Shown: positions 4,946 to 60,636 of the stretch, piece by piece
How the letters are laid out: each line of letters begins with the position of its first letter
Numbering within the stretch: position 1 is the first letter of the stretch
Source: Clostridia bacterium
GTDB lineage: Bacteria > Bacillota > Clostridia > Christensenellales > Aristaeellaceae
Length of the DNA stretch: 64,000 nt
NCBI GenBank assembly: GCA_017508975.1
Contig: JAFWQU010000023.1
Span: 16,075-80,074 of the forward strand
Direction: 5' to 3'
Made by a program: the position numbers and the translations under genes
Notes under the pieces: model-generated
Seen by the model: only the letters and a program-made list of their open reading frames with translations
What the model was told of the DNA's origin: nothing
The model's database searches: none

Positions 4946-5038
4946 ACTCAGTATCGTGTGCTAAATGGCAGCAGAGAGATTTCGCGGCCTGCGGGCCGCG
5001 ACCAGGGCTTTCCGATCGCCCTGGACCTTCGGATGCAC
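4946..5038 (+). repeat. RPT-A copy 1 (core 4976-5032)
   Basis: GAGATTTCGCGGCCTGCGGGCCGCGACCAGGGCTTTCCGATCGCCCTGGACCTTCGG, lying between the ftsL-like stop and the ppx start. The distal arm is of the ATCGTGTGCTAAATG type. Confidence 0.95.
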
Positions 5039-5099
5039 CCTTTGCATGGGGTGTACAGAGAGAAGAAATAGAATATGAAGAAAAATGCCCAGGGAGGGG

Positions 5100-5465
5100 T
5101 TACTCTCCCATGGACATTTCCTGCAGCAGAATCTGCCACTCGGTCTCGGTGTAGCTGTCCAGCAGCTCCGGATTGGTCACCTCAAAGCGCAGTTCGCCCG
5201 GCTTCAGGTAGCCCAGCTCCGTGCGGGCGCGGGTCTCGATGTAGCCCATGGAGCCCACGTTGCGCAGCTCCAGCTTCAGCGCCTGCAGCTCCTCCTCCTT
5301 GCGGGAGAGGTCGTACTGCCGGAGCAGCTCGTTGGAGTTGGCGGCGCGCAGATCCGCGCTGTTGCGGTGGAGACCGAAGGCAAACAGACCGAGCAGCGCG
5401 GCAAAAACCGGAATGACCACGATCCAGCTGACGGCGCCTTTCCGGCTGTCTTTCTGTGTGCGCAT
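5100..5465 (-). CDS. Septum formation initiator family protein (FtsB/DivIC/FtsL-like)
   Basis: This is the C-terminal 121 aa of ORF 5100..5702, starting at MRTQKDSRKGAVSWIVVIPVFAALLGLFAF. It has a single TM helix, then a coiled coil and ETRARTELGYLKPGE, typical of DivIC. The upstream part of the long ORF is Gly/Ala/Arg-rich junk. Confidence 0.7.
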   Translation of the reverse strand: MRTQKDSRKGAVSWIVVIPVFAALLGLFAFGLHRNSADLRAANSNELLRQYDLSRKEEELQALKLELRNVGSMGYIETRARTELGYLKPGELRFEVTNPELLDSYTETEWQILLQEMSMGE

Positions 5466-5488
5466 GGCTGTTTCCCCCAGTATGATGA

Positions 5489-6283
5489 TCAGATCAGAGC
5501 TTCCCAGGCGGCCCGGGTGCGGGCAAGGGCGTCCTGCCAGCGGGACAGGTGCTCCGTATCCCAGAGGCGTCCCTCCGCGATCGCGTGCCTGCAGGCGAGC
5601 AGCTGCCCGAAGGCGCCCTCCGCGAGCGCCTGCCGCATCCGCTCCGCCATCTCCTCCGGATTCGCCAGCTGCTCCGCGAGGTGCGCCAGGTTCTCGCCGC
5701 ACTCCGCCAGGAGCTCCGGGACGTCCGCGTCGTACTCCTCCTCGCGCAGCGTCTCCGCCAGCTGCAGCAGCCAGCCGGGCAGCTCCGCGTCGTCCAGCGC
5801 GGCGCCGTACCGGCCGGTCAGCCAGAGCCAGCAGGCGTCCAGGTGGTCCCAGTTGTCCATCGACCCGCCGCCGGCGAAGACGACCTCGCCCTTGTCCTGG
5901 GTGAAGTCCTCCGCGGCGTACAGCGCCACGATCAGCGGCCGGCCCGTGCTTTTGTGGAGCTGCAGCCAGTCGTGCGCCTGGAAGCGGTTGGGGGAGGTGT
6001 AGGTGAACAGCAGTGTCTCCAGCCCGCCCGGAGCGGTCTCCCGGGTCATCCGGCAGCTGCCGGGGAGCGCGTCGCCCCAGGGCCTCTGGCAGATCATCTC
6101 ATAGAGAAACTGGTCCCCCTCGCCGCCCTGGTCCCTGCTGATCCGATCGAGCTCAGCCTGCAGTTTCTCCGGCGCGGGGATCTCCTCCTCGTCGGGGTCC
6201 ATGGCGTTCTCATACAGCTCCCGCATCAGGCGGGAGAGCTCCGCCGGTGTTCCCACCGCGCAGACACGAACCTGATACCGCAT
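5489..6283 (-). CDS. Hypothetical acidic protein
   Basis: ORF 264 aa with an AGGAGG RBS 8 nt upstream of the ATG. The composition looks coding. I recognise no family. Confidence 0.55.
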   Translation of the reverse strand: MRYQVRVCAVGTPAELSRLMRELYENAMDPDEEEIPAPEKLQAELDRISRDQGGEGDQFLYEMICQRPWGDALPGSCRMTRETAPGGLETLLFTYTSPNRFQAHDWLQLHKSTGRPLIVALYAAEDFTQDKGEVVFAGGGSMDNWDHLDACWLWLTGRYGAALDDAELPGWLLQLAETLREEEYDADVPELLAECGENLAHLAEQLANPEEMAERMRQALAEGAFGQLLACRHAIAEGRLWDTEHLSRWQDALARTRAAWEALI

Positions 6284-6346
6284 GGCATCCGCCTCCTTCT
6301 TTTCGACCCTTCTATTCTACGGCGGAAACAAAATTCCTGCAAGCCC

Positions 6347-6375
6347 TTGACAGCGCGGCCCGGACGTGTTATGCT
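6347..6375 (+). promoter_or_regulatory. Sigma-A type promoter for rplJ-rplL (TTGACA-17 nt-TATGCT)
   Basis: TTGACA at 6347-6352, a 17-nt spacer, and TATGCT at 6370-6375. Confidence 0.55.
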
Positions 6376-6547
6376 TCCGGAGGTTTGACTCAGAAGAACC
6401 ATTGCCGAAGACAGCCGGTGTCCGAGAGGACTTAAGGGAGCACGCTCCGCCTGCCGAGGTGCCAAAGGATCTGCAAATGCTTTTCCCTTGCACCTGCAAT
6501 GCAAGGGTTTTCTTCACTCCCAAACCGTGAGGAGGTGCAGAGAAGCA
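6376..6547 (+). promoter_or_regulatory. Ribosomal protein L10 leader (autoregulatory 5' UTR with attenuator)
   Basis: A ~170-nt structured leader lies between the promoter and rplJ. It ends in an intrinsic-terminator-like hairpin just before the RBS. This position and architecture match the Firmicutes L10 leader. The call is made by context, not by a covariance model. Confidence 0.55.
6485..6514 (+). terminator. Attenuator hairpin inside the L10 leader
   Basis: CCCTTGCA-cctgcaa-TGCAAGGG followed by TTTTCTT, about 30 nt upstream of the rplJ start. Confidence 0.6.
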
Positions 6548-7066
6548 ATGATGAACAAAGGTGAGATGAGCAAGAACCAGGCCGCCAAGGTGGAGGCCGT
6601 CGCCGGGATTCTGGAGCAGGTCAAGGCGGCGCAGTCCATCACGGTGGTGAGCTACTCCGGTCTGACTGTGGCGCAGGTGACTGAGCTGCGGAAGCAGTGC
6701 CGCGAGCAGGGCGTGCAGTACTGCGTGCACAAGAACCGGCTGATGAAGCTGGCGCTGGAGCAGGCTGGGATTACCGGGGCGGATGATCTGCTCAACGGTC
6801 CCAACGCTTTCGTCTTCTCCGTGAAGGATCCCGTGTCCGGCCCCAAGGTCGTGAACGATTTCATCGAGAAGAACAAGCTGCAGGCCCTGGCCATCACCGG
6901 CGGCGTGTTCGAGGGCAAGCCCGCGAACGCGGCGACCATGATGACCCTGGCGAAGATGCCCAACCGGGACGAGCTGCTGGCGATGCTGGTGGGCTGCCTG
7001 CAGAGCCACATTTCCGGCCTGGTGGCCGTGCTGGATCAGATTGCCGAACAGAAGGGCGCTGCCTGA
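6548..7066 (+). CDS. rplJ: 50S ribosomal protein L10
   Basis: ORF track 6488..7066. I set the start at ATG 6548 (MMNKGEMSKNQAAKVEAV...), with GAGGAGG upstream. It lies immediately upstream of rplL. Confidence 0.9.
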   Translation: MMNKGEMSKNQAAKVEAVAGILEQVKAAQSITVVSYSGLTVAQVTELRKQCREQGVQYCVHKNRLMKLALEQAGITGADDLLNGPNAFVFSVKDPVSGPKVVNDFIEKNKLQALAITGGVFEGKPANAATMMTLAKMPNRDELLAMLVGCLQSHISGLVAVLDQIAEQKGAA

Positions 7067-7102
7067 GCGCCGCATGAAACTCTAAGAGATGGAGGTAGAA
7101 AC

Positions 7103-7474
7103 ATGGATATCCAGAGCATCATTGAAGCGATTGAGAAGATGAGCCTGATGGAAGTCAAGGAGCTGGTGGACGCACTGAAGGAGAAGTTCGGCGTGACCGG
7201 CGCCATCGCTGTGGCCGGTGGCCCCGCCCCCGCTGCTGCGGCTGCTGAGGAAGAGAAGACCGAGTTCGACGTCGTGCTGAAGGGCTTCGACGCCGCCAAG
7301 AAGATCGCCATCATCAAGGTGGTCCGCGAAGTCATCGAGGGCCTGGGCCTGAAGGAAGCCAAGGAGATCGTCGAGGGCGCGCCCAAGACCATCAAGGAAG
7401 GCATCTCCAAGGAAGAGGCCGAGAAGATCGTCGCCAAGTTCAAGGACGCCGGCGCCGAGTGCGAGATCAAGTAA
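7103..7474 (+). CDS. rplL: 50S ribosomal protein L7/L12
   Basis: ORF 123 aa. It has an Ala/Pro hinge ([17 protein letters not shown]) and a C-terminal [35 protein letters not shown]. Confidence 0.97.
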
Positions 7475-7490
7475 TCTTCACAACCAACGA

Positions 7491-7520
7491 CAGGACTGCT
7501 TCGGCAGTCCTGTTTTGTAT
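7491..7520 (+). terminator. Rho-independent terminator of rplJL
   Basis: CAGGACTGC-ttcg-GCAGTCCTG followed by TTTTGTATT. Confidence 0.85.
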
Positions 7521-7525
7521 TGTTC

Positions 7526-7616
7526 TCGGTTGAATATGCTTATCGTCAACAGTGAGATTTCGCGCCTGCGGGCGCGACCAGGGCTTTCCGATCGCCCTGG
7601 ACCTTCGGTCGCATAC
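7526..7616 (+). repeat. RPT-A copy 2 (core 7554-7608), short-stem variant
   Basis: Hairpin 1 is CGCGCC-tgcg-GGCGCG. It lies between the rplL terminator and the stop of the DUF4129 gene. Confidence 0.95.
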
Positions 7617-7651
7617 CCTATCTTGATTTGTGCTTTTACTTGAGATTGGTG

Positions 7652-9917: not shown

Positions 9918-9921
<4 letters not shown>
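8851..9921 (-). CDS. DUF58 domain-containing protein
   Basis: This is the C-terminal 356 aa of ORF 8851..10497, starting MNILVALLVFIGLTLAYGF (TM anchor). It carries the DUF58 signature region (IRPYLPGDPIRDIHWPATARTGEPQV). The ATG overlaps the moxR stop (ATGA). Confidence 0.8.
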
Positions 9922-10854
<933 letters not shown>

Positions 10855-10874
<20 letters not shown>

Positions 10875-12027: not shown

Positions 12028-12082
12028 CTTATTGTCCTCGTTTCGTGGAATCATCTTTTGTAAAGGAAATATAGATTCAATA

Positions 12083-12147
12083 GCGCATGCGCCCGAAGGT
12101 CCAGGGCGATCGGAAAGCCTTGGTCGCGCCCGCAGGCGCGAAATCCC
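12083..12147 (-). repeat. RPT-A copy 3 (core 12093-12145), reverse orientation
   Basis: The plus strand reads CCGAAGGTCCAGGGCGATCGGAAAGCCTTGGTCGCGCCCGCAGGCGCGAAATC. Hairpin 2 has one G-T pair on this strand. Confidence 0.95.
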
Positions 12148-12254
12148 CCGCTATGGTTTGACAATCCTGCCGGGGAATAAGGATAAGACGGAATGGGATG
12201 GCCCATTATACCGCCTGTGGCAGAGTTTGGCAATCAAAAAGTGCATCGGGGGGC

Positions 12255-12283
12255 TTGACATTGGGGAAGGGCGGTGCTATACT
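12255..12283 (+). promoter_or_regulatory. Near-consensus sigma-A promoter (TTGACA-17 nt-TATACT) for the HMA/P-type ATPase genes
   Basis: TTGACA at 12255-12260, a 17-nt spacer, and TATACT at 12278-12283. Confidence 0.7.
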
Positions 12284-12290
12284 GCAAGCA

Positions 12291-12314
12291 TCATATGAAT
12301 GATTGTTCATATGA
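12291..12314. promoter_or_regulatory. Perfect 9-6-9 inverted repeat, candidate metalloregulator (ArsR/SmtB-like) operator
   Basis: TCATATGAA-tgattg-TTCATATGA lies immediately downstream of the -10 box and upstream of the metal-transport genes. Confidence 0.5.
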
Positions 12315-12335
12315 TAATAAGTCGAGCGGAGGGAC

Positions 12336-12560: not shown

Positions 12561-12576
12561 GGCGGAGGGCTTTTCC

Positions 12577-14951: not shown

Positions 14952-14976
14952 GGTGCGTCAGAAGCATATCAAACGG

Positions 14977-15060
14977 ATGCTTATCGTCAACAGTGAGATT
15001 TCGCGGCCTGCGGGCCGCGACCAGGGCTTTCCGATCGCCCTGGACCTTTGGTTACATGCC
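14977..15060 (+). repeat. RPT-A copy 4 (core 14995-15051)
   Basis: Full core, ending CCTTTGG instead of CCTTCGG. It lies between the hup terminator and the stop of the 15147 gene. Confidence 0.95.
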
Positions 15061-15146
15061 TTTTCTTGATTTGCAGTTATTACCTGAGAGTAGTATCAGT
15101 ACGAATTCCAGTTTGCCTGGCCAAATGATAAACGGAAACCCGGAAG

Positions 15147-21364: not shown

Positions 21365-21375
21365 TTTTGTGTTGC

Positions 21376-21477
21376 ACTGATCTCAGTTTAGAACGCTTAT
21401 TGTCAGTAGTGAGATTTCGCGGCCTGCGGGCCGCGACCAGGGCTTTCCGATCGCCCTGGACCTTCGGCCGCATACTG
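21376..21477 (+). repeat. RPT-A copy 5 (core 21411-21467)
   Basis: Full core with a distal arm of the CTCAGTTTAGAACGCTTATTGTCAG type. Confidence 0.95.
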
Positions 21478-21509
21478 TTAGCGAATTTGTATTTATTCTT
21501 GAAATTAGC

Positions 21510-22667: not shown

Positions 22668-22790
22668 TCTAATACTAATCTCAGTTTAGAACGTTTATTG
22701 TCAACAGAGAGATTTCGCGGCCTGCGGGCCGCGACCAGGTCCGCAGCCGGACTGGCGGTTTTCCGATCGCCCTGGACCTTCGGTGACATC
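22668..22790 (+). repeat. RPT-A copy 6 (core 22709-22783) with an ~18-nt insertion inside hairpin 2
   Basis: CCAGG-[TCCGCAGCCGGACTGGCG]-GTTTTCCGATCGCCCTGG. It lies between the LRR gene stop and the PstS-like gene start. Confidence 0.9.
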
Positions 22791-22825
22791 GGCTGCCTGA
22801 AGGATAGATCTTCTTTCTGAAAGCG

Positions 22826-24940: not shown

Positions 24941-24970
24941 TTGCCTCATGGGTCCGGAGTATGTTATAAT
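24941..24970 (+). promoter_or_regulatory. Promoter for the dnaD-like operon (TTGCCT-18 nt-TGtTATAAT, extended -10)
   Basis: TTGCCT at 24941-24946, and TATAAT at 24965-24970 preceded by TGT. Confidence 0.6.
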
Positions 24971-25001
24971 ACCGCGAGAGACCCAGGGGGGAGGAATCGG
25001 C

Positions 25002-26456
25002 TTGCTGGAGTTCGACAGCCAGTTTGCGCTGTATGACGTCACGCCCGTGGCGAATTGCTTTATCCGGGATTATCTGCCGGGGACCGACGGCGAAAAAGTG
25101 AAGGTTTATCTCTACGGCCTGATGTGCTGCATGCACCCGCAGCCGGACCTGACCCTGGCGGGGATTGCCGCGGCGCTGCAGATGGAGGAGCGGGAGGTGC
25201 TGGACGCCTTCCGGCACTGGGAGTTCATGGGGCTGGTGCAGCGGGTGAGCGACAATCCGCTTCTTTTCCGCTATGTGCATCCGATCTGGCGGAGCCTCCC
25301 GGAGGGCGCTGTGGAGATCGACCGGGCGAGCCAGGCCTTTATGGAGGACCTCTACGCGGCCTTCGGCGGACAGCGGGACCTGACCGGCGCGGAGAAGCGC
25401 AAGGCCTGGGAGTGGGTGGAGGAGGACGGCTTCCCCACCGAGGTGGTGCTGGTGCTGGTCAAGCACCTGGTGGCCACCCGCGGGCTGAACTTCCCCTTCG
25501 GCGGCAAGGAGGCGCTGCGCCTGGTAGAGCTCCTGCGGGCGGAGCAGGTGAAGACCGTGGAGGGCGCCCTCGAGGTGCTGGGCCGCGAGCAGGAGATCGA
25601 GGAGGGCGCGGCCGCGGTGCTGCGGCGTTTCCGGCAGCGGCGGCATCTGCCCAGCCAGGACGAGATCGACCTGTACCGCAAATGGCGCCGCGACTGGGGC
25701 TTCTCCCGGGACGACATTCTCGCGGCCTGCGCCGAGACGACCAAGGGCGCGCCCAACTTCGGCTACCTGGACGGGGTGCTGAAGGGCATCCACGAGCGCG
25801 GCGGTGCCGTCGGGCAGGACAGGGAGGAGAACGATCTGGTCCGGGAGATGCTCCACGCGCTGGGCGCGAAGAACGTCTCGATCAACGACGGGACGCGTGC
25901 CATCTACCGTCAGATGACGGAGCTCTATCCCCACGAGGTGGTGCTGCTGGCGGCCCGGGAGTGCTCGGCCAAGGGACGGGGCGTCGACGACGTCCTCGAC
26001 GGCCTGGAGCGCTGGAAGAAGCGCGGCCTGCAGGACATTGGGGAGATCCGGCGCTTTATCGACGAATACAACGCGCAGAGCGCGCTCCTGAAAAAACTCG
26101 CGGAGATCTGGGGCAAGCCCGTGCCCACGAGCCAGGCGAACCGGGCATTCCTGGAGAAGTGGCAGCGCGAACTGGGCATGGACGAGGCGCTGATCCTGCA
26201 CTGCGCGGCCTTTGCCCAGGGCGCGGAGAAGAACATGCCCTATCTGGACCGGCTGCTGGTCTCCTTCGCCGGACAGGGCGTCCGGACGGCGGAGGCGGCG
26301 GACGAGGCGAACGCGGCCTGGAAGCGGAAACAGGGCGGAGGCGGAAAGACCGTGTCCGCGCAGCAGTATGAACAGCGCGACTACAGCGGGGAGACCGAGG
26401 ACCTGCCGGACTGGGTCATGAAGCGGTGGAAGGAGATGCAGCAGAATGGCCAGTGA
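25002..26456 (+). CDS. DnaD/DnaB(Firmicutes)-type replication initiation / primosome protein
   Basis: This lies within ORF 24894..26456. A TTG start at 25002 follows a GGGAGGAA RBS. It has repeated DnaD-like C-terminal domains and lies immediately upstream of, and overlapping, the helicase-loader gene. Confidence 0.7.
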   Translation: MLEFDSQFALYDVTPVANCFIRDYLPGTDGEKVKVYLYGLMCCMHPQPDLTLAGIAAALQMEEREVLDAFRHWEFMGLVQRVSDNPLLFRYVHPIWRSLPEGAVEIDRASQAFMEDLYAAFGGQRDLTGAEKRKAWEWVEEDGFPTEVVLVLVKHLVATRGLNFPFGGKEALRLVELLRAEQVKTVEGALEVLGREQEIEEGAAAVLRRFRQRRHLPSQDEIDLYRKWRRDWGFSRDDILAACAETTKGAPNFGYLDGVLKGIHERGGAVGQDREENDLVREMLHALGAKNVSINDGTRAIYRQMTELYPHEVVLLAARECSAKGRGVDDVLDGLERWKKRGLQDIGEIRRFIDEYNAQSALLKKLAEIWGKPVPTSQANRAFLEKWQRELGMDEALILHCAAFAQGAEKNMPYLDRLLVSFAGQGVRTAEAADEANAAWKRKQGGGGKTVSAQQYEQRDYSGETEDLPDWVMKRWKEMQQNGQ

Positions 26457-27408
26457 GTGGATTGCACGCCTGGAGGAGCATTACCGGCTGCTGCAGGAGC
26501 GCAGCCGGCAGGAGGAGAGCCGCCGCCGCGCGCAGGCCGAGGCGGAGTGCCCGGAGCTGGCGGAGACGCTGGCCGCGCGGCAGCAGATGGTCTTCCGGGG
26601 CGTCCAGCAGATGCTGGCCGGCCAGGGGGACGCGGTGGACCTGCCCGGGAAGATGGAAACTCTCAACCGGAAAATCCGGGATCTGCTGCGCGCCAACGGC
26701 CATCCGGAGGACTGGCTGGAGCCGGTCTACGCGTGCGCGAAATGCCGGGATACGGGCTTCACCGGGGAGAACCCGCGGACGGAGTGCGACTGCCGCCGGC
26801 GGCTGCGCATCCGGCTGCAGACCGAGGACCTGGGCGTCACCACCCAGGGACACAGCTTCGAGACCTTCGATCCGGAGGTGTTCCCGGACGATCCGTTGGA
26901 GGGCGGCCTCACCCAGCGGCAGCTCATGTGCGTGTACCGCGATCAGCTGCGCAACTGGGCGTCCGAGGCGCCGGAGGTGCCCGACCGCACGATCGTGCTC
27001 AGCGGCAAGAGCGGTCTGGGGAAAACCTATCTGCTGCACTGCATTGCGGACGCGCTGATGCGCCGCGGCGTGCCCTGCGTGCTGACGAGCGCGTTCCAGT
27101 CCCTGACCGCCTTCCGGCGCGCGGAGTTCGACCGGGACGACGCGGACTGGCAGAGTCTCTGCGAGGTGCAGGTGCTGCTGCTGGACGACCTGGGGAGCGA
27201 GCCACTTTACCAGAACGTGACCGTGGAGCAGTTCTACCAGCTGATCGAGCAGCGCATGCAAGCGCGGCTGTGCACGGTGATCAGCACGAACCTGACCAAG
27301 GAAGAGCTTAAGTCCCGCTACACGGAGCGCATTGCCTCGCGTCTGACGGACCGCCGCCAGTGCAACTGGATGCCGCTCAAGGGTGTGGACATCCGCAGAA
27401 GGGGGTGA
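26446..27408 (+). CDS. DnaC/DnaI-type helicase loader (IstB-like AAA+ ATPase)
   Basis: ORF 320 aa with a Cys-rich zinc motif (CAKCRDTGF...CDC), Walker A LSGKSGLGKTYL and Walker B VLLLDDLG. Confidence 0.8.
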   Translation: MASEWIARLEEHYRLLQERSRQEESRRRAQAEAECPELAETLAARQQMVFRGVQQMLAGQGDAVDLPGKMETLNRKIRDLLRANGHPEDWLEPVYACAKCRDTGFTGENPRTECDCRRRLRIRLQTEDLGVTTQGHSFETFDPEVFPDDPLEGGLTQRQLMCVYRDQLRNWASEAPEVPDRTIVLSGKSGLGKTYLLHCIADALMRRGVPCVLTSAFQSLTAFRRAEFDRDDADWQSLCEVQVLLLDDLGSEPLYQNVTVEQFYQLIEQRMQARLCTVISTNLTKEELKSRYTERIASRLTDRRQCNWMPLKGVDIRRRG

Positions 27409-27763: not shown

Positions 27764-27805
27764 GGGAGATTCACTCTTTTGGAGAGAGTGTGATACTTCC
27801 AGAGG

Positions 27806-27860
27806 GGGATTTCGCGCCTGCGGGCGCGACCAGGGCTTTCCGATCGCCCCGGACCTTCGG
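27806..27860 (+). repeat. RPT-A copy 7 (first unit of the tandem array)
   Basis: Short-stem hairpin 1. The 3' arm of hairpin 2 is GCCCCGG, which gives A-C on this strand and G-T on the opposite strand. Confidence 0.95.
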
Positions 27861-27899
27861 GGGAATTCACTCTTTTGGAGAGGTGGATGTTTTCAGAGG

Positions 27900-27956
27900 G
27901 GGATTTCGCGGCCTGCGGGCCGCGACCAGGGCTTTCCGATCGCCCTGGACCTTCGG
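27900..27956 (+). repeat. RPT-A copy 8 (second unit of the tandem array)
   Basis: Canonical core. Confidence 0.95.
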
Positions 27957-28014
27957 GGAATTCACCTTTTTGGAGAGGTCGGTAGTTGAGGTAAGAAATT
28001 AAATTGAGAATCAG

Positions 28015-28046: not shown

Positions 28047-28164
28047 TATATCGGGAATCAAATTGTTAAAAATCTGTTTCATAAATTCACAAATTCAGAA
28101 GGCTCAGCTCGGAACATCTATGGTAATTCCGAACAAGAATAACAAATCAAGTAAGGGGAGGGGG

Positions 28165-28230
28165 ATTGCCCGAAGAGTCCAGAGGCGATCGGAAAGCCTC
28201 TGGTCGCGCCCGCAGGCGCGAAATCTCTTG
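28165..28230 (-). repeat. RPT-A copy 9, reverse orientation, long-stem hairpin 2 variant
   Basis: CCGAAGAGTCCAGAGGCGATCGGAAAGCCTCTGGTCGCGCCCGCAGGCGCGAAATC. Confidence 0.95.
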
Positions 28231-28314
28231 TTCTATTCTTTTGAAAAAACTAACTGCGATAATGAAATAATGCGTAATATATGAAAATAATCAACAAATA
28301 TGTCACAGAAAGGA

Positions 28315-32524: not shown

Positions 32525-32597
32525 TAATACTGATCTCAGTTTAGAATGCTCATTGTCAGCAGTAAGATTTCGCGCCCGCAGGCGCGAAAACCTTCTG
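32525..32597 (+). repeat. RPT-A copy 14, truncated (distal arm plus hairpin 1 only)
   Basis: TAATACTGATCTCAGTTTAGAATGCTCATTGTCAGCAGTAAGATTTCGCGCCCGCAGGCGCGAAAACC. Hairpin 2 is missing and the hairpin 1 loop is inverted. Confidence 0.8.
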
Positions 32598-32632
32598 TAT
32601 GAATTCAAAATTCTATGAGCAAAACGGCATAC

Positions 32633-40932: not shown

Positions 40933-41046
40933 CATACTAATCTCATTTTGAATGCTTATTGTCAACAGTGAGATTTCGCGGCCTGCGGGCCGCGACCAGG
41001 GCTTTCCGATCGCCCTGGACCTTCGGGTGCACCTTTTTGGAGAGAA
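40933..41046 (+). repeat. RPT-A copy 10 (core 40970-41026)
   Basis: Canonical core with a TTTGAATGCTTATTGTCAACAG arm and a 3' GTGCACCTTTTTGGAGAG extension. It begins 3 nt after the ABC exporter stop. Confidence 0.95.
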
Positions 41047-41105: not shown

Positions 41106-41145
41106 TGCCTATGCGATTCCCAAACGGACATACATCAATAGGGGG

Positions 41146-41210
41146 AATGCCCGAAGAGTCCAGAGGCGATCGGAAAGCCTCTGGTCGCGCCCGCAGGCGC
41201 GAAATTCTCC
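41146..41210 (-). repeat. RPT-A copy 11, reverse orientation, long-stem hairpin 2 variant
   Basis: Nearly identical to copy 9. It ends 11 nt before the GH13 stop codon. Confidence 0.95.
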
Positions 41211-41220
41211 TGTGGACGGT

Positions 41221-42762
41221 TCAGCCTTCAAGAACCATGCAGACCGTCTGTCCCTGTACGCAGAGCCCCTTGTCCGTGAGGGAGGCGCTTTCGCCGACGG
41301 CGGAGAGAATCTGGCCTTTGACCTGCCAGACACAGGGAGCGGCGGCGGGATTCACGACGACCGTGATCCGCTCGGAACCGGCGCTGCGGCGGTAGACCAG
41401 GGGATAGCCCTCGTCGGCGAGCAGCTCGAAATCACCGGTGTTGTCCAGCGCGGGGTGCGCGCGGCGCAGGGCGGTCAGCGCCTGTACGGTGCGCCAGAGA
41501 CTGTCCGGGTCGGCCTGCTGGTCGGCGACGTTCGGCCGCTCCGGGTCGGCGTCCTGGGCGATGTAGAGCCGTTCGGCGGGCGCGGCGCTGAAGCCGGCGT
41601 TGGCCGTGCGGTCCCACTGCATCGGGGAGCGGGAGCCGGTGCGCTCGTAGCCGCCCTCCACGGAGTGGATGCCCTCGAGATAGCGCATGCCGATCTCGTC
41701 GCCGTAGTAGATGAACGGCACGCCTGGCATCGTCAGCAGGAAGGCGAAGACAAGGCGGATCTCCTCCGGCGTCAGATATTTCGCCAGGCGCGCCATGTCG
41801 TGGTTGCCGGAGGGGAAGGCGATCAGCCCGTTGGGGCCTGCCTTCTTCCGACAGGCGAGGTAGTGCGCCATGAAGGCGGCGGCGCTGCCCTTCCCCCGGG
41901 CGGAGAAATAGGGCTCCTCGCACCGGAAGAGGTCGTTGTAGTGGCTCGGACCGAAGTGCAGCAGGAAGTCCATGTGGAAGCCGCCCTCCAGGGACTTCTC
42001 CGGATCGCCCCACTCGGAGACCATCGCGGCGCCGGGGTGCGTCTTGTCCAGCCAGGCGCGGATGCCCTGCCACAGGCGGATCGTGCCCTTCTTCTCCGGG
42101 TCGTTCTTGACCATGGCGTGGGCCATGTCCACCCGGAAGCCGTCGCAGCCCAGGCTCAGCCAGAAGTCCATGATCCGCTTCATCTCGGCGATGTTCGCCT
42201 GCGGGCCGGGCGCGTCTGGGGACTGCTGCCAGGGGCGGTCGATCTCCTCGAAGCCGTAGTTCAGCGCGGGCTGGTGGCTGAAGAAGTTCACCAGACAGCT
42301 GCCGTTCCGCTCCGAGATGCCGTGCAGGAAGCTGGCGCCCTCCATGCGCTCCCAGACGTTGTCGGTCCAGACATAGCGGTCGGTCCAGGCGTTGCGGTCC
42401 CCCTTGCAGGATTCGGCGAATCCGGGGTGGTCGATGGCGGTGTGCCCCGGAACCAGATCGAGAAAGACATGCATGCCCCGGCGGTGCGCCTCGGCGAAGA
42501 GCTCCTTCAGGTCCTCGTTGGTGCCGTAGCGGGGCGCGGCGGTGTAGAAGTCCAGCACGTCGTAGCCCGCGTCGCGGAAGGGCGAGGCAAAGCAGGGATT
42601 CAGCCACAGCGCGTTGCAGCCCAGTTCCTGGATCACCGGAAGCTTCCGCAGAATGCCCCGGAAGTCCCCGATGCCGTCCGCGTTGGTGTCGCAGAAGGAC
42701 TGCGGATAGATTTCATAAAAGATGGCGTGGTCCAGCCAGGCCGGATGCGATGCGAATTCCAT
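41221..42762 (-). CDS. GH13 alpha-amylase family enzyme (alpha-glucosidase / oligo-1,6-glucosidase-like)
   Basis: This lies within ORF 41221..42990. I set the start at MEFASHPAWLDHAIFYEIYPQSF (42762) after an AGGAGG RBS. GH13 regions present are DGIGDF, GMHVFLDLVPGH, GFRVDMAH and SEWGD. Confidence 0.85.
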   Translation of the reverse strand: MEFASHPAWLDHAIFYEIYPQSFCDTNADGIGDFRGILRKLPVIQELGCNALWLNPCFASPFRDAGYDVLDFYTAAPRYGTNEDLKELFAEAHRRGMHVFLDLVPGHTAIDHPGFAESCKGDRNAWTDRYVWTDNVWERMEGASFLHGISERNGSCLVNFFSHQPALNYGFEEIDRPWQQSPDAPGPQANIAEMKRIMDFWLSLGCDGFRVDMAHAMVKNDPEKKGTIRLWQGIRAWLDKTHPGAAMVSEWGDPEKSLEGGFHMDFLLHFGPSHYNDLFRCEEPYFSARGKGSAAAFMAHYLACRKKAGPNGLIAFPSGNHDMARLAKYLTPEEIRLVFAFLLTMPGVPFIYYGDEIGMRYLEGIHSVEGGYERTGSRSPMQWDRTANAGFSAAPAERLYIAQDADPERPNVADQQADPDSLWRTVQALTALRRAHPALDNTGDFELLADEGYPLVYRRSAGSERITVVVNPAAAPCVWQVKGQILSAVGESASLTDKGLCVQGQTVCMVLEG

Positions 42763-45927: not shown

Positions 45928-46636
45928 CAAGCTGTGCAAGTCCTTCGGCAAGCTGGAGGTGCTCCACAACGTCTCCGAGCACATTGAAAAGGGCGAGTGC
46001 GTGGTGCTCATAGGCCCCTCCGGCTCGGGAAAATCCACGTTCCTCCGGTGCCTGAACCTCCTGGAGGAGCCCACCTCCGGCGAGATCCTCTTTGACGGGG
46101 TTTCGATGACAAGCCCGAGTACGGACATCAACAGGATGCGCCAGAAGATGGGCATGGTGTTCCAGCACTTCAACCTCTTCCCGAATATGACGATCCTGAG
46201 GAACATCACCCTGGCGCCCACCCGCACGGGCATCATGGTCCGGGAGCAGGCGGAAGCGCGCGCGATGGAGCTCCTGCAGCGCGTGGGCCTGGCGGACAAG
46301 GCAAGCGCCTATCCGGCGCAGCTCTCCGGCGGCCAGAAGCAGCGCGTGGCGATCGTCCGGGCGCTGTGCATGCAGCCCGAGGTCATGCTCTTCGACGAGC
46401 CGACCTCCGCCCTGGACCCGGAGATGGTGGGCGAGGTGCTGGACGTGATGAAGAGCCTCGCCATGGCCGGCATGACCATGGTGGTGGTCACCCACGAGAT
46501 GGGCTTTGCCCGCGAGGTGGCCAACCGCGTGCTGTTCCTGGACGGCGGCGAGATCGTCGAGCAGGGCGACCCGCACAATATCTTCTACAACCCGCAGAGC
46601 GAGCGGCTGAAATCCTTCCTGGCGAAGGTACTGTGA
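45914..46636 (+). CDS. Amino acid ABC transporter ATP-binding protein (GlnQ-like)
   Basis: ORF 240 aa with [20 protein letters not shown] and [11 protein letters not shown]. It overlaps the permease gene by 14 nt. Confidence 0.9.
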
Positions 46637-46673
46637 AAACAAGTCTTCGGATACAAACACAAATCAGGAAACG

Positions 46674-46776
46674 GCATGTATCCGAAGGTCCAGGGCGATC
46701 GGAAAGCCCTGGTCGCGGCCCGCAGGCTGCGAAATCTCTCTGCTGACATTTCGTACACGATATTGTGATCGGTATG
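46674..46776 (-). repeat. RPT-A copy 12 (core 46682-46738), reverse orientation
   Basis: It fills the glnQ-like/argF intercistronic gap. Hairpin 1 has one G-T pair on the plus strand (GGCTGCG). Confidence 0.95.
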
Positions 46777-46788
46777 AGGAGGAGGACC

Positions 46789-47778
46789 ATGAATCTGAAA
46801 GGACGCAGCTTTCTGACGCTGCTGGACTATACCCCGGAGGAGATCACGGAGCTGCTGGATCTTGCGGCCTCCCTCAAGGCGCAGAAAAAGGCGGGCATCA
46901 CCCACCGTTTCTGCGAGGGAAAGAATGTCGCGCTGATCTTCGAGAAGACCTCCACCCGCACCCGCTGCGCCTTCGAGGTGGCCGCGGCGGACCTGGGCAT
47001 GCACCCGGTCTACCTGGACCCCAAGAGCAGCCAGATCGGCAAGAAGGAGTCGATCCCGGACACCGCGCGGGTGCTGGGCCGGATGTTCGACGGCATCGAG
47101 TACCGCGGCTTCGGTCAGGAGATCGTGGAGGCGCTGGCGGAGTACTCCGGCGTGCCGGTCTGGAACGGCCTGACCAACGAGTACCACCCCACGCAGATTC
47201 TGGCGGACTTCCTGACCGTCCGCGAGCACTTTGGGAGCCTGAAGGACCGCAAGCTGGTCTACCTCGGCGACGCGCGCTACAACATGGGTGACTCCCTGAT
47301 GGTCGGCTGCGCGAAGATGGGGATGCGCTTCGTGGCCTGCGCGCCGGAGAAGTATTTCCCGAACCCGGACCTGATCGCGAAGTGTCAGGCGATCGCCGCG
47401 GAGACCGGCGCGGAGCTGGCCTTCGAGACGGATCCGGAGAAGGCGGTGGCGGGTGCGGACGTCCTCTACACGGACGTCTGGGTCTCGATGGGCGAGCCGG
47501 ACGAGGTCTGGGCGGAGCGGATCGCCGATCTGACGCCCTACCGGGTGACGGAGAAGCTCATGGCCGCTGCCGGCCCCCAGTGCCGCTTCATGCACTGCCT
47601 GCCCGCGTTCCACGACCTGAAGACCGCCATCGGCCGCGAGATCTACGAAAAGTTCGGCATCGAATGCATGGAGGTGGAGGACGCGGTCTTTGAGGGCCCG
47701 CAGTCCATCGTCTTCGACGAGGCGGAGAACCGCATGCACACGATCAAGGCCGTGATGGCCGCGACTCTGGGAATCTGA
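46789..47778 (+). CDS. argF: Ornithine carbamoyltransferase
   Basis: ORF track 46765..47778. I set the start at [19 protein letters not shown] (46789). STRTR, HPTQ and HCLP motifs are all present. Confidence 0.93.
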
Positions 47779-47813
47779 AGCCGGTTTCAAGCAAAGGCTG
47801 CAAATCCAGCAAC

Positions 47814-47930
47814 AGCATGTATCCGAAGGTCCAGGGCGATCGGAAAGCCCTGGTCGCGGCCCGCAGGCCGCGAAATCTCCCTGTTGACATTTAGCACACG
47901 ATACTGAGATCAGTATGAGATCAGTATCAG
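47814..47930 (-). repeat. RPT-A copy 13 (core 47823-47879), reverse orientation, with a duplicated distal end
   Basis: Canonical core. The distal arm ends in the duplication GATACTGAGATCAGTATGAGATCAGTATCAG. It lies between the argF stop and the bidirectional terminator. Confidence 0.95.
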
Positions 47931-54287: not shown

Positions 54288-54288
54288 C

Positions 54289-56965: not shown

Positions 56966-56969
56966 ACAC

Positions 56970-56998
56970 TTGCCAAGAGCGGCTTTCGGTGTTATGAT
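56970..56998 (+). promoter_or_regulatory. Internal promoter for glnS-gltX (TTGCCA-17 nt-TATGAT)
   Basis: TTGCCA at 56970-56975 and TATGAT at 56993-56998. Confidence 0.5.
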
Positions 56999-57030
56999 GG
57001 GAGCGATTTTCAAAGCAGGAGGCGAACCCC

Positions 57031-58764: not shown

Positions 58765-58780
58765 GGAAAGAGGAAAGACC

Positions 58781-60244
58781 ATGGAAGTCAGAACCCGCTT
58801 TGCCCCCAGCCCGACGGGCTTCATGCATCTGGGCGGCGTGCGCACCGCGCTCTACGCCTACCTGTTTGCGAAACAGAACAACGGCAAGTTTATCCTGCGC
58901 ATCGAGGACACGGACCAGGAACGCTATGTCGACGGCGCGGTGGAGGTCATCTATGACACCCTGAGGGCCTGCGGGCTGAACTGGGACGAGGGTCCGGACA
59001 TCGGCGGCCCCGTCGGCCCCTATGTGCAGTCCGAGCGCAAGGCGACCTACCTGCCCTACGCGCAGCAGCTGGTCCGCAGCGGCCACGCCTATTACTGCTT
59101 CTGCTCCAAGGAGGAGATCGAGGCGCGCCGCGAGGCGGTCGAGGCGGCCGGCGGCACCTGGAAATACGACAAGCACTGCCTGCATCTGACCCCCGAGCAG
59201 GTGGAGGAGAAGCTGGCGGCGGGCATCCCGTGGACGATCCGCATGAACGCGCCCACCGAGGGCGAGACCAGCTACCACGACACCGTGTTCGGCGACATGA
59301 CCTTCCAGAACGCGGAGGCCATGGACGACATGGTGCTCATCAAGCAGGACGGCATGCCCACCTACAACTTCGCCAACGTCATCGACGACCACCTGATGGG
59401 CATCACCCACGTCATGCGCGGCATGGAGTACCTGTCCTCGACGCCCCGCTACAACTATCTGTACACGGCGCTGGGCTGGGATATCCCGGAGTACATCCAC
59501 CTGCCCACGGTGATGCGCGACGCCACCCACAAGCTGTCCAAGCGGGACGGCGACGCCTACTATTCCGACTACATCGACAAGGGCTACCTGACCGAGGCGC
59601 TGATCAACTACCTGGCGCTGGTCGGCTGGAATCCCGGCGACGAACGGGAGTTCTTCACCCTGCCGGAGCTGGTGGAGGCCTTTGACGTGCACCGCTTGAA
59701 CAAGTCCCCGGGCATCTTCGACGTGAACAAGCTGACCTGGTTCAACGCGGAGTACATCCGCCGGATGGATCCCGCGCGCTATCTCGAGCTGGCGACGCCC
59801 TGGTTCGACCAGGCGCTGGCGGGGAAGAACATCGACTACCGCCGCCTGGCGGAGCTGATGCAGGAGCGCACCGAAATCTTCAACCAGGTGCCGGGCATGG
59901 TGCGGTTCCTCGCGGAGCTCCCGGATTACGACGTGGAGCTGTACACGCACAAGAAGATGAAGACCAACCCAGAGGTGGCGAAAACCGCGCTCACGCTGTG
60001 CAAGCCGGTGCTGGAGGCCATCGCGCCGGAGGACTGGAACGAGCAGGTGCTGCACGACCGGCTGATGGAGGCCATCGCCGCCAGCGGCATGAAGAACGGC
60101 GCGGTGCTCTGGCCGCTGCGCATCGCCATCTCCGGCCAGGCTTCCACCCCCGGCGGCGCCATGGAGATCGCCTACCTCCTGGGCAAGGAGGAGACCCTGC
60201 GGCGGCTGGACGCCGGGATGGAGAAGCTGGAGGCACAGGCGTAA
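58781..60244 (+). CDS. gltX: Glutamate--tRNA ligase
   Basis: ORF 487 aa with RFAPSPTGFMHLGGVRTA (HIGH variant) and HKLSKRDG (KMSKS). Confidence 0.95.
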   Translation: MEVRTRFAPSPTGFMHLGGVRTALYAYLFAKQNNGKFILRIEDTDQERYVDGAVEVIYDTLRACGLNWDEGPDIGGPVGPYVQSERKATYLPYAQQLVRSGHAYYCFCSKEEIEARREAVEAAGGTWKYDKHCLHLTPEQVEEKLAAGIPWTIRMNAPTEGETSYHDTVFGDMTFQNAEAMDDMVLIKQDGMPTYNFANVIDDHLMGITHVMRGMEYLSSTPRYNYLYTALGWDIPEYIHLPTVMRDATHKLSKRDGDAYYSDYIDKGYLTEALINYLALVGWNPGDEREFFTLPELVEAFDVHRLNKSPGIFDVNKLTWFNAEYIRRMDPARYLELATPWFDQALAGKNIDYRRLAELMQERTEIFNQVPGMVRFLAELPDYDVELYTHKKMKTNPEVAKTALTLCKPVLEAIAPEDWNEQVLHDRLMEAIAASGMKNGAVLWPLRIAISGQASTPGGAMEIAYLLGKEETLRRLDAGMEKLEAQA

Positions 60245-60534
60245 TGGCGACCACGCTGTGGGTGCGGGTGATCCGGCACCACCGCACCTGGCGGCAGGCG
60301 GAGGTGCCCTGCGCACGGGATACGGTGACCGAGGCGCTGGACACGGCCTGTCAGCAGCTGGACCTCTCGCGTCCGCTCTGGCTGGACAAGAACCAGCGCG
60401 AGTGGGACGAGTTCGGCCAGACGCGGTTCCTGCCGGACGCCTTCCTGGAGACGGTGGATTTTGACCGCCTGGAGATCGAGTACATCGACACCGAGGCGAA
60501 GAAAAAGCGCTCCCGGGATCCCCGGAACGCGTAG
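60244..60534 (+). CDS. Small hypothetical protein (96 aa), translationally coupled to gltX
   Basis: This is the C-terminal part of ORF 59998..60534. The ATG at 60244 overlaps the gltX TAA (TAATG). The sequence MATTLWVRVIRHHRTWRQAEVPCARD... matches no family I recognise. Confidence 0.5.
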   Translation: MATTLWVRVIRHHRTWRQAEVPCARDTVTEALDTACQQLDLSRPLWLDKNQREWDEFGQTRFLPDAFLETVDFDRLEIEYIDTEAKKKRSRDPRNA

Positions 60535-60571
60535 TGTTCCTTTCCCGGAGCATGGATATCGACAACAGGGT

Positions 60572-60636
60572 GAATCCGAAGGTCCAGGGCGATCGGAAAG
60601 CCCTGGTCGCGCCCGCAGGCGCGAAAACCCTCTGTT
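60572..60636 (-). repeat. RPT-A copy 15 (core 60576-60634), reverse orientation, short-stem variant
   Basis: CCGAAGGTCCAGGGCGATCGGAAAGCCCTGGTCGCGCCCGCAGGCGCGAAAACC, lying between the small ORF and pepV. Confidence 0.95.

Follow-up and report, generated by a model that had tools for sequence, protein, structure and literature searches.

A new family of MITE-like insertions in gut Clostridia carries a conserved hairpin and pseudoknot core

Introduction

The described elements most similar to the one reported here, compared by description, are the Correia/NEMIS repeats of Neisseria, ERIC/IRU of enterobacteria, RUP/BOX of Streptococcus pneumoniae, and bcr1 of the Bacillus cereus group. The present element shares with them a length of about 100-150 bp, the lack of an ORF, inverted-repeat ends, and a short target duplication, as well as many intergenic copies that often lie at gene 3' ends, the capacity to fold as long hairpin RNAs, an orientation-dependent relation to genes, and presence/absence polymorphism among relatives. 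Unlike these repeats, it is best conserved at its centre rather than at its ends, one core of ~60 nt recurs in several unrelated shells across at least 35 species, the core contains a covariation-supported H-type pseudoknot with a helix-scaled linker, and 1.4 Mb of loci yielded no cognate IS. REP/BIME sequences are likewise short, very abundant extragenic hairpin repeats with compensatory stem changes near gene ends, but the present element has no conserved GTAG head, consists of two hairpins and a pseudoknot instead of one imperfect palindrome, has inverted-repeat ends and a 3-bp duplication, and has no RAYT gene in the window (the whole 64-kb stretch of DNA analysed) or the other loci examined.

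At the level of the fold, comparable pseudoknots with a linker in the groove are known in luteovirus frameshift signals, the preQ1 and SAM-II riboswitches, telomerase RNA, and ToxI antitoxin repeats. These combine a stem, a loop-to-tail helix, and a linker parallel to the 5' strand of stem 1, with linker length tied to stem length and linker sequence to stem base pairs, all of which is shared by the present core; in contrast to them, it occurs as hundreds of dispersed copies in any gene neighbourhood and not as the leader of a specific gene or a toxin-adjacent tandem array. The hammerhead, twister, HDV-like, and pistol ribozymes are similar in being about 60 nt long, pseudoknotted, multi-copy, and associated with mobile DNA, with invariant unpaired bases, but no Rfam match to the core appears even at E≤10 and its helix order fits none of them. 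Gut Clostridia are uncultured, and to our knowledge their interspersed repeats have for this reason received almost no study. Here, we present a previously undescribed small mobile element from these bacteria that is best read as a new structured MITE family.

Results

An earlier note on this DNA had counted 15 copies of a 57-nt double-hairpin repeat, and our searches recovered the same number, comprising 14 full copies and one copy with hairpin 1 only (32550-32608), with none expected by chance. The hairpin-2 pattern CCAGGGCTTTCCGATCGCCCTGG, with up to 3 mismatches allowed, gave 11 matches in the window versus 0.00 in shuffles, the hairpin-1 pattern gave 8 versus 0.00, and the loop TTTCCGATC with its context located 14 copies; nhmmer and Infernal returned the identical 14 together with the partial copy, spanning 4962-60644. 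The 57-nt repeat is real, but it forms only the centre of a MITE-like insertion of ~120-140 bp, which ends in inverted repeats and is flanked by a 3-bp target duplication. The stem variants described previously were also recovered, with a short, 6-bp hairpin 1 (CGCGCC/GGCGCG) in seven copies (six full and the partial one) and an 8-bp P2, CCAGAGGC/GCCTCTGG, in two (28159-28241 and 41140-41222). The copies and their parts are as follows.

4962..5043, + strand: copy 1, covariance-model match between the stop of a DivIC-like gene and the start of a Ppx/GppA gene, both on the - strand, so that the copy is antisense to both
4982..5001, + strand: hairpin P1 of copy 1, UCGCGGCC-UGCG-GGCCGCGA, 8 bp, cUNCGg-type tetraloop
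5002..5024, + strand: hairpin P2 of copy 1, CCAGGGC-UUUCCGAUC-GCCCUGG, with no spacer after P1
5012..5015, + strand: pseudoknot 5' strand of copy 1, CCGA, in the P2 loop, from covariation
5025..5028, + strand: linker L3 of copy 1, ACCU, mirroring the P2 purine arm
5029..5032, + strand: pseudoknot 3' strand of copy 1, UCGG, from covariation
7540..7619, + strand: copy 2, between a convergent L7/L12 gene and a 400-aa gene; whole unit bounded by inverted repeats at about 7518-7651
12082..12161, - strand: copy 3, in the divergent spacer between an M20 peptidase gene and a copZ-like gene, with its own inverted-repeat flanks
14961..15095, + strand: whole unit of copy 4; core 14981-15062; TCA at 14958-14960 and 15096-15098
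21397..21478, + strand: copy 5, between convergent aspS and a PBP-like gene; whole unit about 21374-21509
22695..22794, + strand: copy 6, a variant with an extra 18-nt hairpin in the 5' arm of P2
27792..27871, + strand: copy 7, which forms with copy 8 a tandem pair of 94-nt period
27886..27967, + strand: copy 8, second of the tandem pair with copy 7
28159..28241, - strand: copy 9, 8-bp P2 variant (AGAGG) with linker ACUCU
32550..32608, + strand: copy 10, partial, left shell and P1 alone, with P2 and its loop precisely missing
40956..41037, + strand: copy 11, which directly follows the stop codon of an ABC transporter gene and precedes a shared terminator
41140..41222, - strand: copy 12, 8-bp P2 variant, which directly follows the stop codon of an alpha-amylase gene and precedes the shared terminator
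46637..46774, - strand: whole 138-bp unit of copy 13; core 46671-46752; between the ABC_tran stop codon and the argF ribosome-binding site
46634-46636 and 46775-46777: TGA target duplication of copy 13; empty site in relatives
47779..47915, - strand: whole 137-bp unit of copy 14; core 47812-47893
47776-47778 and 47916-47918: TGA target duplication of copy 14, the first being the argF stop codon
About 47919-47930: solo end fragment after copy 14
60541..60658, - strand: whole unit of copy 15; core 60565-60644; a shell of different inverted repeats, TTTCCCGGAGCATGGATAT ... ATACCCATGTTCCGGGAAA; no copy in the orthologous spacer of relatives

The variant of copy 6 was also present at another locus (L093) in a different species.

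An alignment of 150 copies, built with a covariance model, revealed standard pairs in 98.5% of 2708 pair cells compared with 90.9% in shuffles (none of 500 shuffles reached 98.5%) and double-sided changes at 15 of 21 pairs, although many copies are related by descent, so that such counts overestimate how many changes arose independently. Pairing fell to 31-57% when the 3' partners were shifted by 1-3 columns. All 8 pairs of P1 changed on both sides, its loops were UGCG, UACG, or UUCG and always closed by C-G, and P2 directly abutted P1. Unpaired nucleotides (UUUCGC, GCGACC, and the loop UUU..UC) were invariant across at least 35 species, in which the ~60-nt core was far better conserved than the shells. 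The proposal that selection acts on a folded nucleic acid was thereby strengthened, and a peptide is not the selected product, as had also been proposed, since length variants read the invariant loop in differing frames; a P1 variant with 2 additional nt likewise shifts the reading frame. The centre of the element, the 60-base core, is thus under strong selection for a hairpin and pseudoknot fold, which makes it a good candidate for a new structured RNA. An additional helix (P0) between the purine-rich leader and the tail CCUU, which would form a three-way junction, was rejected, with 71.9% of cells paired versus 72.2% in shuffles and 1 double-change pair versus 2.1 expected.

The pseudoknot, absent from the earlier note, is of the H type and consists of a 4-bp helix between CCGA in the P2 loop and UCGG in the 3' tail. 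The 9-nt loop, described previously as invariant, is identical in all 14 window copies that carry P2 but varies across genomes in covariation with the tail, and the tail ACCTTCGG is no spacer but the 3' strand that pairs with this loop. Pair 58-83 was C-G in 129 copies of the 150-copy alignment and G-C in 11, with no mixed pairs, and the 11 G-C copies all come from a single MAG that also has C-G copies; two further forms, U-A (6 contigs of one lineage) and U.G (several lineages), came from a targeted metagenome scan. Pair 61-80 was A-U in 128 copies and G.U in 12, and in the pseudoknot G.U pairs were more frequent than A.C mismatches. A competing c(UUCG)g mini-hairpin was discarded, being broken by CCUUCGC variants without compensation.

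The length of L3 equalled that of P2 minus 3 in 131 of 134 copies, with P2 and L3 lengths of 7 and 4 in 33 copies, 8 and 5 in 8, and 9 and 6 in 90, leaving 3 exceptions. These three length classes comprise at least six sequence classes, including AGGG/ACCU, AAAGGG/AAACCU, AGAGG/ACUCU, AGGGGG/ACCCCU, and AGAGGG/ACUCCU, in which the linker mirrors the purine arm of P2 in parallel register and gains one base per added base pair. Judged from the sequences, such scaling and mirroring are as would be expected of a strand lying in a helix groove.

Each unit is 118-138 bp long, lacks an ORF, and has two layers, namely a lineage-specific inverted-repeat shell outside (shell A, TACYRATCTCAGT ... ACTTGAGATTGGTA) and the near-identical core of ~60 nt inside. 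Over all copies, flank complementarity exceeded that of shuffles modestly (duplex energy -19.6 vs -17.4 kcal/mol, p = 3e-4). Clean 3-bp target duplications, TGA or TCA, were found at copies 4, 13, and 14 of the window. At the copy 13 locus, the 138-bp TGA-flanked unit contrasts with 13-16 nt in relatives, and the duplication was checked against three empty orthologous sites; the 96aa-M20 spacer of copy 15 provided a second empty site, and no copies were found in 63 kb from three close relatives. The inverted-repeat shells, target duplications, and empty sites together identify the units as MITE-like insertions, which are short, ORF-free, and high in copy number, with terminal inverted repeats. 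Gene calls agreed with the previous statement that the window holds no transposase or RAYT gene, and neither recurred near copies elsewhere; across about 1.4 Mb of loci, the neighbours were housekeeping genes with no cognate transposase among them, all but one of the end-motif matches adjoined a core or fell within a copy's unit, and none bounded a transposase.

Copies were found in at least 35 species-level MAGs, all from uncultured Clostridia of the gut and rumen, and the element has expanded in the host genome to 15 copies in 64 kb. Its lack of resemblance to any named Rfam family, suggested previously, was confirmed by the absence of an Rfam 15 match at the gathering score. Across the entire window, only two families, the Lysine riboswitch and the L10 leader, reached gathering, both away from the copies, and at E≤10, with three sequence variants, the sole overlap with the core was a chance hairpin match (Xoo1, 18 bits; gathering 70).

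All 15 window copies are intergenic by the gene calls of the source metagenome contigs, consistent with the earlier placement outside genes. One copy is overlapped by a spurious 30-aa call, the sole overlap in the window. Among 150 copies in other genomes, 12 lay within ORF calls, every one of which was a start-codon overcall or a short doubtful ORF. Orientation was strongly biased. The gene lying beyond the element's 3' end was convergent, so that the two 3' ends faced each other, in 93 of 122 cases and co-directional in 29, and copies between tandem genes were antisense in 36 cases and sense in 15. This bias was equal in three shell classes, and the orientation rule fits 12 of the 15 window copies by the contigs' own gene calls. 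Distances to stop codons were broad, and where neighbouring genes have canonical terminators, copies occurred on either side of them. No U-tract follows P1 or P2 on either strand (ACC..., AAAUC..., or CCUUCGG stands there instead), indicating that the element is not a canonical intrinsic terminator; a terminator scan flagged separate canonical terminators and one weak shell hairpin, and nothing else. No conserved promoter was found at a fixed distance from the core.

Discussion

We favor, with a probability of roughly 0.55, the reading that this new structured MITE family carries a core that functions as a single folded strand, most probably RNA, whose effects depend on orientation. The selected molecule would be RNA read from the 'forward' strand, acting in cis and in an orientation-dependent manner on any transcript containing the core by blocking, ending, or processing it, so that the copies that persist would mostly be those from which reading of the forward strand does not continue into a downstream gene. 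The C-G-closed UNCG-type loops of P1 and the excess of G.U over A.C in the pseudoknot favor forward-strand RNA. Single mismatches in P1 and P2 were about 17 A.C and about 11 G.U, and because A.C is at least as common, the stems carry no strand signal. Since the forward strand is mostly antisense in tandem-gene settings, the forward RNA would need its own promoter or read-in transcription. A further, tentative proposal is that the 60-nt core may represent a new functional RNA class, a coaxial hairpin with a triplex-like H-type pseudoknot riding different mobile shells, whose own biochemical activity (e.g., self-cleavage, stalling or termination of RNA polymerase, blocking or recruiting of RNase) could make the effect on neighbouring genes orientation-dependent.

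The lack of a G.U preference over A.C in the stems would also suit an unlikely explanation, in which the fold is selected in single-stranded DNA, extruded or lagging-strand, as a recognition or processing structure for a mobilising enzyme (HUH/Y1-type or another transposase), so that only copies keeping the fold would propagate. Conservation of the core and not the ends across different shells fits a core that determines mobility, and the family is expanded in particular lineages and missing in close relatives. However, inverted-repeat ends with 3-bp duplications mark cut-and-paste DDE transposition, a mechanism that requires no structure within the element. Loops of the cUNCGg type and an H-type pseudoknot whose linker tracks the groove are hallmarks of RNA. 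Window copies moreover track local gene direction and not the replication strand (9 on +, 6 on -, with uniformly positive GC skew), and about 1.4 Mb of loci revealed neither an HUH nor a Y1 gene. We regard as doubtful, and as less probable than selection in DNA, the idea that the core is an autonomous functional RNA hitch-hiking in mobile shells, acting either as a small ribozyme that cleaves itself or as the decoy or ligand of a host protein (RNase, RNA polymerase, or RNA chaperone). It would account for a compact, pseudoknotted core with many invariant unpaired nucleotides across at least 35 species, for the tolerance of an optional extra hairpin at one site in two species, and for the avoidance by the forward strand of sites upstream of co-directional genes, as a cleaving or destabilising RNA would produce; small ribozymes are also typically multi-copy and repeat-associated. 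Against it, the core, even at E≤10, resembles neither the hammerhead, twister, twister-sister, pistol, hatchet, and HDV-like ribozymes nor any other model in Rfam; it also offers no inferable cleavage site and lacks a conserved promoter.

The remaining explanations dispense with selection on this fold or assign the element to a familiar class. MITEs are usually long imperfect palindromes, the shells here pair mutually better than shuffled partners, and many copies are near-identical, so that few independent events would be needed if templated (quasi-palindrome) repair between the arms and amplification of a few master copies had produced a purely selfish palindromic MITE with an unselected fold. 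Such correction cannot explain covariation of the loop with a non-palindromic tail 17-21 nt away, or the concerted three-way change in which the linker follows both arms of P2 in parallel register, or a core far better conserved than its shells across at least 35 species; the covariation of pseudoknot and linker already leaves this explanation largely refuted and very improbable. Most improbable of all, even taken together, are a RAYT-mobilised element of the REP/BIME type, a transcription-terminator family, and a short peptide gene on the reverse strand, which would fit a high-copy, extragenic, hairpin-forming repeat near gene 3' ends whose reverse strand often opens with ATG a few bases before the core. 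The double hairpin with pseudoknot, the inverted-repeat ends with target duplication, and the absence of a GTAG-type head and of any RAYT or Y1 gene among the called genes of the window or other loci contradict the first, and the missing U-run after both hairpins on both strands contradicts the second. As a peptide, the loop would be read as GAT-CGG-AAA with a 7-bp P2 and as CGA-TCG-GAA with a 9-bp P2, its frame is shifted by P1 length variants, and a ribosome-binding site is absent.

Returning to a core that acts as a folded strand, most likely RNA, its hundreds of copies, with covariation in both hairpin helices, in the pseudoknot, and in the linker that tracks the groove, form a natural mutagenesis experiment from which a precise three-dimensional model is predicted to follow. 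If the core has its own activity, it would be a new small RNA class and the element a mobile one whose functional RNA module rewires transcript fate at hundreds of loci; if inactive, it would still clearly exemplify selection on a bacterial MITE at the level of structure and provide a useful marker for annotating and binning these MAGs. The element probably also contributes to contig breaks in MAG assemblies.

Copies of the repeat and covariation of its two hairpins

A search anchored on the loop TTTCCGATC with its surrounding sequence recovered 14 full copies of the repeat in the window, each with a core of about 60 nt that comprises a hairpin (P1), a second hairpin (P2) and a loop-tail pseudoknot (CCGA/UCGG). 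A profile search of the window added one further copy, at about 32550-32608, in which the left flank and hairpin 1 are present and hairpin 2 is precisely absent, so that the 15 copies counted by eye in the earlier note are borne out as 14 full copies and one partial copy. The hairpin-2 string (up to three mismatches) matched 11 times and the hairpin-1 string 8 times in the window, versus 0.00 matches for each in dinucleotide-preserving shuffles. The stem variants described earlier were recovered as well: hairpin 1 has 6 bp in seven copies (six full copies and the partial one), and hairpin 2 has 8 bp in two of the extracted window copies. Several copies carried larger rearrangements.

Rearranged copies (window coordinates unless a locus is named)
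22695-22794, + strand: extra-hairpin variant, with the P2 5' arm interrupted by an 18-20-nt hairpin, GUCCGCAGCCGGAC; loop and tail kept
L093 (locus of another species), 2340-2439, - strand: extra-hairpin variant with the same insertion GUCCGCAGCCGGAC
27790-27970, + strand: tandem pair of copies (period 94 nt); GAATTCACYCTTTTGGAGAG occurs three times, between the two and on either side
32525-32608, + strand: partial element with the left shell (the inverted-repeat flank of the core) and P1, loop CGCA instead of UGCG; P2 and its loop missing (GCGCGA-AA-ACCUUC)

Because the extra hairpin is common to two species, the P2 5' arm seems to be a site at which the fold tolerates expansion. The tandem pair appears to be a local duplication, in tandem, of either a whole unit or a different shell type, and the partial element may have arisen by deletion or may represent an ancestral form.

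A covariance model of the two hairpins only was built from 96 distinct copies, and 150 hits were then realigned and scored for 21 pairs (8 bp in P1, 9 bp in P2 and 4 bp in the loop-tail helix). Standard pairs occupied 98.5% of 2708 cells, versus 90.9% in column shuffles, a level reached by none of 500 shuffles; both sides had changed in 15 of the 21 pairs, and pairing fell to 31-57% when the 3' partners were shifted by 1-3 columns. This check of the paired stem changes, which had been read as selection on a folded nucleic acid, supported the fold in all the aligned copies taken together. The middle pairs of P1 occurred as G-C, C-G, A-U and U-A, and even its nearly invariant base covaried, from UUUCGC..GCGA to UUUAGC..GCUA in locus L027, with UUUCGU..ACGA in L054, L056 and L036 and UUCCGC..GCGG in L022, L024 and a group of copies from the metagenome-assembled genome (MAG) RUG13572. 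In some copies, the first pairs of P2 were flipped to G-C, G-U-C/G-A-C or G-G/C-C. No unpaired base separates P1 from P2, so coaxial stacking of the two is possible. The minimum-free-energy fold of some copies also contained a helix P0 between a purine-rich leader and the tail CCUU; as the closing helix of a three-way junction it was rejected for want of covariation.

The loop-tail pseudoknot and its linker

The 9-nt loop of P2, described in the earlier note as invariant, was so in the window but not across genomes, where its fourth base was C in 129 copies, all with the tail ...UUCGG, and G in 11, all with the tail ...UUCGC; mixed copies numbered zero. All 11 G/C copies came from one MAG, RUG13572, which also holds C/G copies, and the G/C state was found on both P1/P2 backgrounds. 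The pairing predicts matching tails for loops with A or U at the fourth position, and a model-filtered scan of the metagenome collection found a U-A pair (loop UUUUCGAUC with tail UUCGA) in one human-gut lineage represented by six contigs, U.G at the same position in five or six lineages, and A opposite C in two. The neighbouring pair (loop A, tail U) was G.U in 12 copies and unpaired in 4. One position of the CCGA/UCGG helix thus shows four pair types, and a second one varies by wobble. As a self-contained c(UUCG)g hairpin, the tail CCUUCGG is broken by the CCUUCGC variants; this candidate was rejected, since the loop supplies the compensation for the G-to-C change and the would-be closing C does not.

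The linker between the P2 3' arm and the UCGG tail had a length equal to that of P2 minus 3, namely 4 nt with 7 bp (33 copies), 5 nt with 8 bp (8 copies) or 6 nt with 9 bp (90 copies), with three exceptions. Its sequence also tracked the P2 purine arm, with both strands read 5' to 3'.

Classes of P2 purine arm and linker (arm/linker)
AGGG/ACCU
AAAGGG/AAACCU
AGAGG/ACUCU
AGGGG/ACCCU
AGGGGG/ACCCCU
AGAGGG/ACUCCU

Pairing of linker and tail with the P2 5' arm as an antiparallel partner would fit most of these classes and fails for AGAGGG/ACUCCU, which fits the parallel register only and so rules out an alternative antiparallel helix of Watson-Crick pairs. The third loop of an H-type pseudoknot spans the first stem from base to top, parallel to the 5' strand of that stem. 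A linker that tracks the base pairs at one nucleotide per pair may accordingly lie in the groove as a triplex-like strand.

Distribution and recent expansion

A degenerate pattern fixing only TTTCGC, GCGACC and the loop was searched in a one-genome-per-species collection, and more than 105 stretches matched it among the matches listed. Two of them, in an Ignavibacteriaceae MAG and a Hyphomicrobium MAG, failed confirmation by the covariance model; the others fell, among the matches listed, in at least 35 distinct MAGs under labels such as Clostridia, Bacillota, Christensenellales, Candidatus Egerieenecus and 'Faecalibacterium sp. CAG:74'. As far as sources can be read from record titles or contig names, these MAGs originated from ruminant gut (rumen, omasum, colon, rectum), water-deer rectum and Hadza samples. 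The core was also present in six IMG/VR contigs (L188-L193) and, from human faecal viromes, in 11 short contigs recorded as 'Bacteriophage sp.' and lacking annotation (MT837061, MT838741, MT839045 and eight others); these may be true phages, prophage flanks or bacterial contamination. The plasmid collection yielded no match. In the 743 kb of window and fetched loci, the covariance model found 169 copies. One of these loci, L067 (CALVVZ010000166.1, 6782 bp), is a perfect inverted self-duplication around position ~3400, that is, an assembly chimera, so its four repeat hits are really two.

Three loci of 21 kb each (L113, L114 and L115; 63 kb in total) contained no copy, against a density of one per 4.3 kb in the window. 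Their source organisms are closely related to that of the window (85-89% identity of the argF product), and one comes from the same sample series. The expansion of the element is therefore recent and lineage-specific.

Mobile units with variable ends

In the commonest window type, the core is flanked on each side by about 35-40 nt that are mutual inverted repeats (TACYRATCTCAGT... / ...ACTTGAGATTGGTA). In three relatives, only 13-16 nt separate the ABC-transporter stop codon from the argF start; the same spacer in the window carries a 138-bp insert at 46637-46774 with TGA on both sides. Clean duplications were likewise found for TGA at 47776 and 47916 and for TCA at 14958 and 15096. In two of these three insertions, the stop codon of the upstream gene (TGA at 46634-46636 and 47776-47778) was the target and was regenerated, and both flank argF in the same orientation. 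A solo left-end fragment, TACTGATC, lies at 47916-47930 (+ strand coordinates) directly outside the target duplication of the copy following argF, which suggests an earlier insertion or an excision footprint at the same spot. The inverted-repeat shell of the last window copy (60541-60559 and 60640-60658) is of quite another type. Two relatives lack this copy, and their orthologous spacers measure 27 and 99 nt versus 148 nt in the window.

Other genomes had shells with TTGCAAG palindromes, whose 3' side carries a hairpin and a T-run, or another shell beginning GGCTGTCGCGCTAAGCGCATAAAG..., and the flanks of all copies paired modestly better than shuffled partners. Genomes with TTGCAAG-shell units have composite intergenic repeat blocks; in L067 (MAG BRZ_BV bin18), a second, unrelated terminator-like repeated hairpin, AAAGTGGCGACGCCACTTTTTTGACACGCTG, occurs alongside such units at 75-110 and 345-395. 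With their inverted-repeat shells, empty sites and duplications, the units behave as MITEs, of an unusual sort in that the interior is conserved and the ends vary. No insertion sequence with matching ends, which would be bounded by TACTGATCTCAG with a 3-bp T(C/G)A duplication, was found in the loci searched, and clustering of 643 neighbouring ORFs gave housekeeping families only and no recurrent gene family near the copies. The annotated gene calls likewise bore out the reported absence of a transposase from the window. One annotation there invites misreading.

24948-27408, + strand: protein with a faint DnaB_2 Pfam hit, followed by a protein hitting PF01695 (IstB_IS21) at 26446-27408

It is an easy mistake to take the latter for an IS21 helper or transposition gene; by context, the two are presumably the Firmicute dnaB-dnaI helicase-loader or replication-restart pair instead.

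Orientation relative to genes

Genes were called with a simple GC-frame caller, which on the window reproduced most contig gene calls with correct strands. Beyond the 3' end of the forward strand, on which P1, P2 and the UCGG tail read 5' to 3', the next gene was more often convergent (93 cases) than co-directional (29); on the 5' side, there was no clear bias (64 versus 50). Between tandem genes, 36 copies were antisense and 15 sense. There was an excess of convergent spacers (26), and few were divergent (6). The bias was present in all three shell classes and, by the contigs' own gene calls, in 12 of the 15 window copies. Replication strand was unsupported as its cause in the window, where nine copies lie on the + strand and six on the - strand under a uniform GC skew; the bias follows local gene direction. 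Distances to stop codons were broad, and copies stood both before and after canonical terminators, so the element is not a fixed 3'-UTR module. In the simplest reading, selection would act against forward-strand copies that precede a co-directional gene, and their forward transcript may be harmful to downstream expression.

Molecule, mechanism and classification

The main rival to a transcribed structure is a single-stranded-DNA fold used in mobilisation. In silico folding was about equal for both strands, and the single mismatches of P1 and P2 (A.C about 17, G.U about 11) were uninformative as to the strand under selection. On the forward strand, the P1 loop was UGCG, UACG or UUCG and always C-G closed, and cUNCGg loops are a very stable class; its complement is not known as a stable loop. 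In the pseudoknot, G.U pairs greatly outnumbered A.C. This loop class and the G.U excess speak for the forward strand as RNA. The mechanism we prefer is a putative cis-acting, orientation-dependent RNA structure; the core may also have a new autonomous RNA activity.

Other identities were considered. A tRNA-like element was rejected, as ARAGORN found no such gene and the P2 loop is unlike a T-loop, and a reverse-strand peptide was ruled out on reading frames. Outward TTGACA-like hexamers occur in the commonest window shell with a -10-like box spaced 19-20 nt, and a promoter in the shell was rejected; a promoter scan at the copies found none, and a terminator profile around 119 copies gave no clear pattern. 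The suspicion that no named Rfam family covers the element held: Rfam 15 at gathering thresholds returned, over the whole window, only a lysine riboswitch and an L10 leader, both elsewhere, and a permissive scan (E<=10) of copies of three sequence types gave no meaningful overlap with the core. No published description was found for the loop string or for MITE/pseudoknot/Clostridia, with one possibly relevant 2026 preprint outside coverage. The element belongs to neither REP/RAYT nor any Rfam family and, set against structured MITEs (Correia, ERIC, RUP/BOX, bcr1), is best classed as a new variant of that kind with an elaborate structure. The finding is real and richer than first described, and the element's existence, distribution, three helices, linker rule, mobility and orientation bias are well supported.

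Gene context in the window

Gene calls and Pfam annotation for almost the whole window (G+C 60-71%, GC skew positive throughout) were taken from ENA metagenome contigs, to which exact protein matches assign it; near-identical proteins also occur in NCBI entries titled MAG: Clostridia bacterium. By these calls, all 15 copies are intergenic, as had been claimed, the sole overlap being a spurious 30-aa call on one copy. The neighbouring genes are housekeeping genes, including those for ribosomal proteins L10 and L7/L12, HU, hisS, aspS, argG, argF, ABC transporters, gltX, glnS and a dipeptidase. The lysine riboswitch (82 bits; 62088-62266, +) precedes an asd-dapA-dapB operon, an ordinary arrangement that confirms Firmicute-type regulation in a 64% G+C genome. 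The L10 leader (6387-6523, +) lies upstream of rplJ-rplL and, at 45.5 bits, just exceeds the gathering score of 44; the second copy of the repeat lies directly past the rplL terminator.
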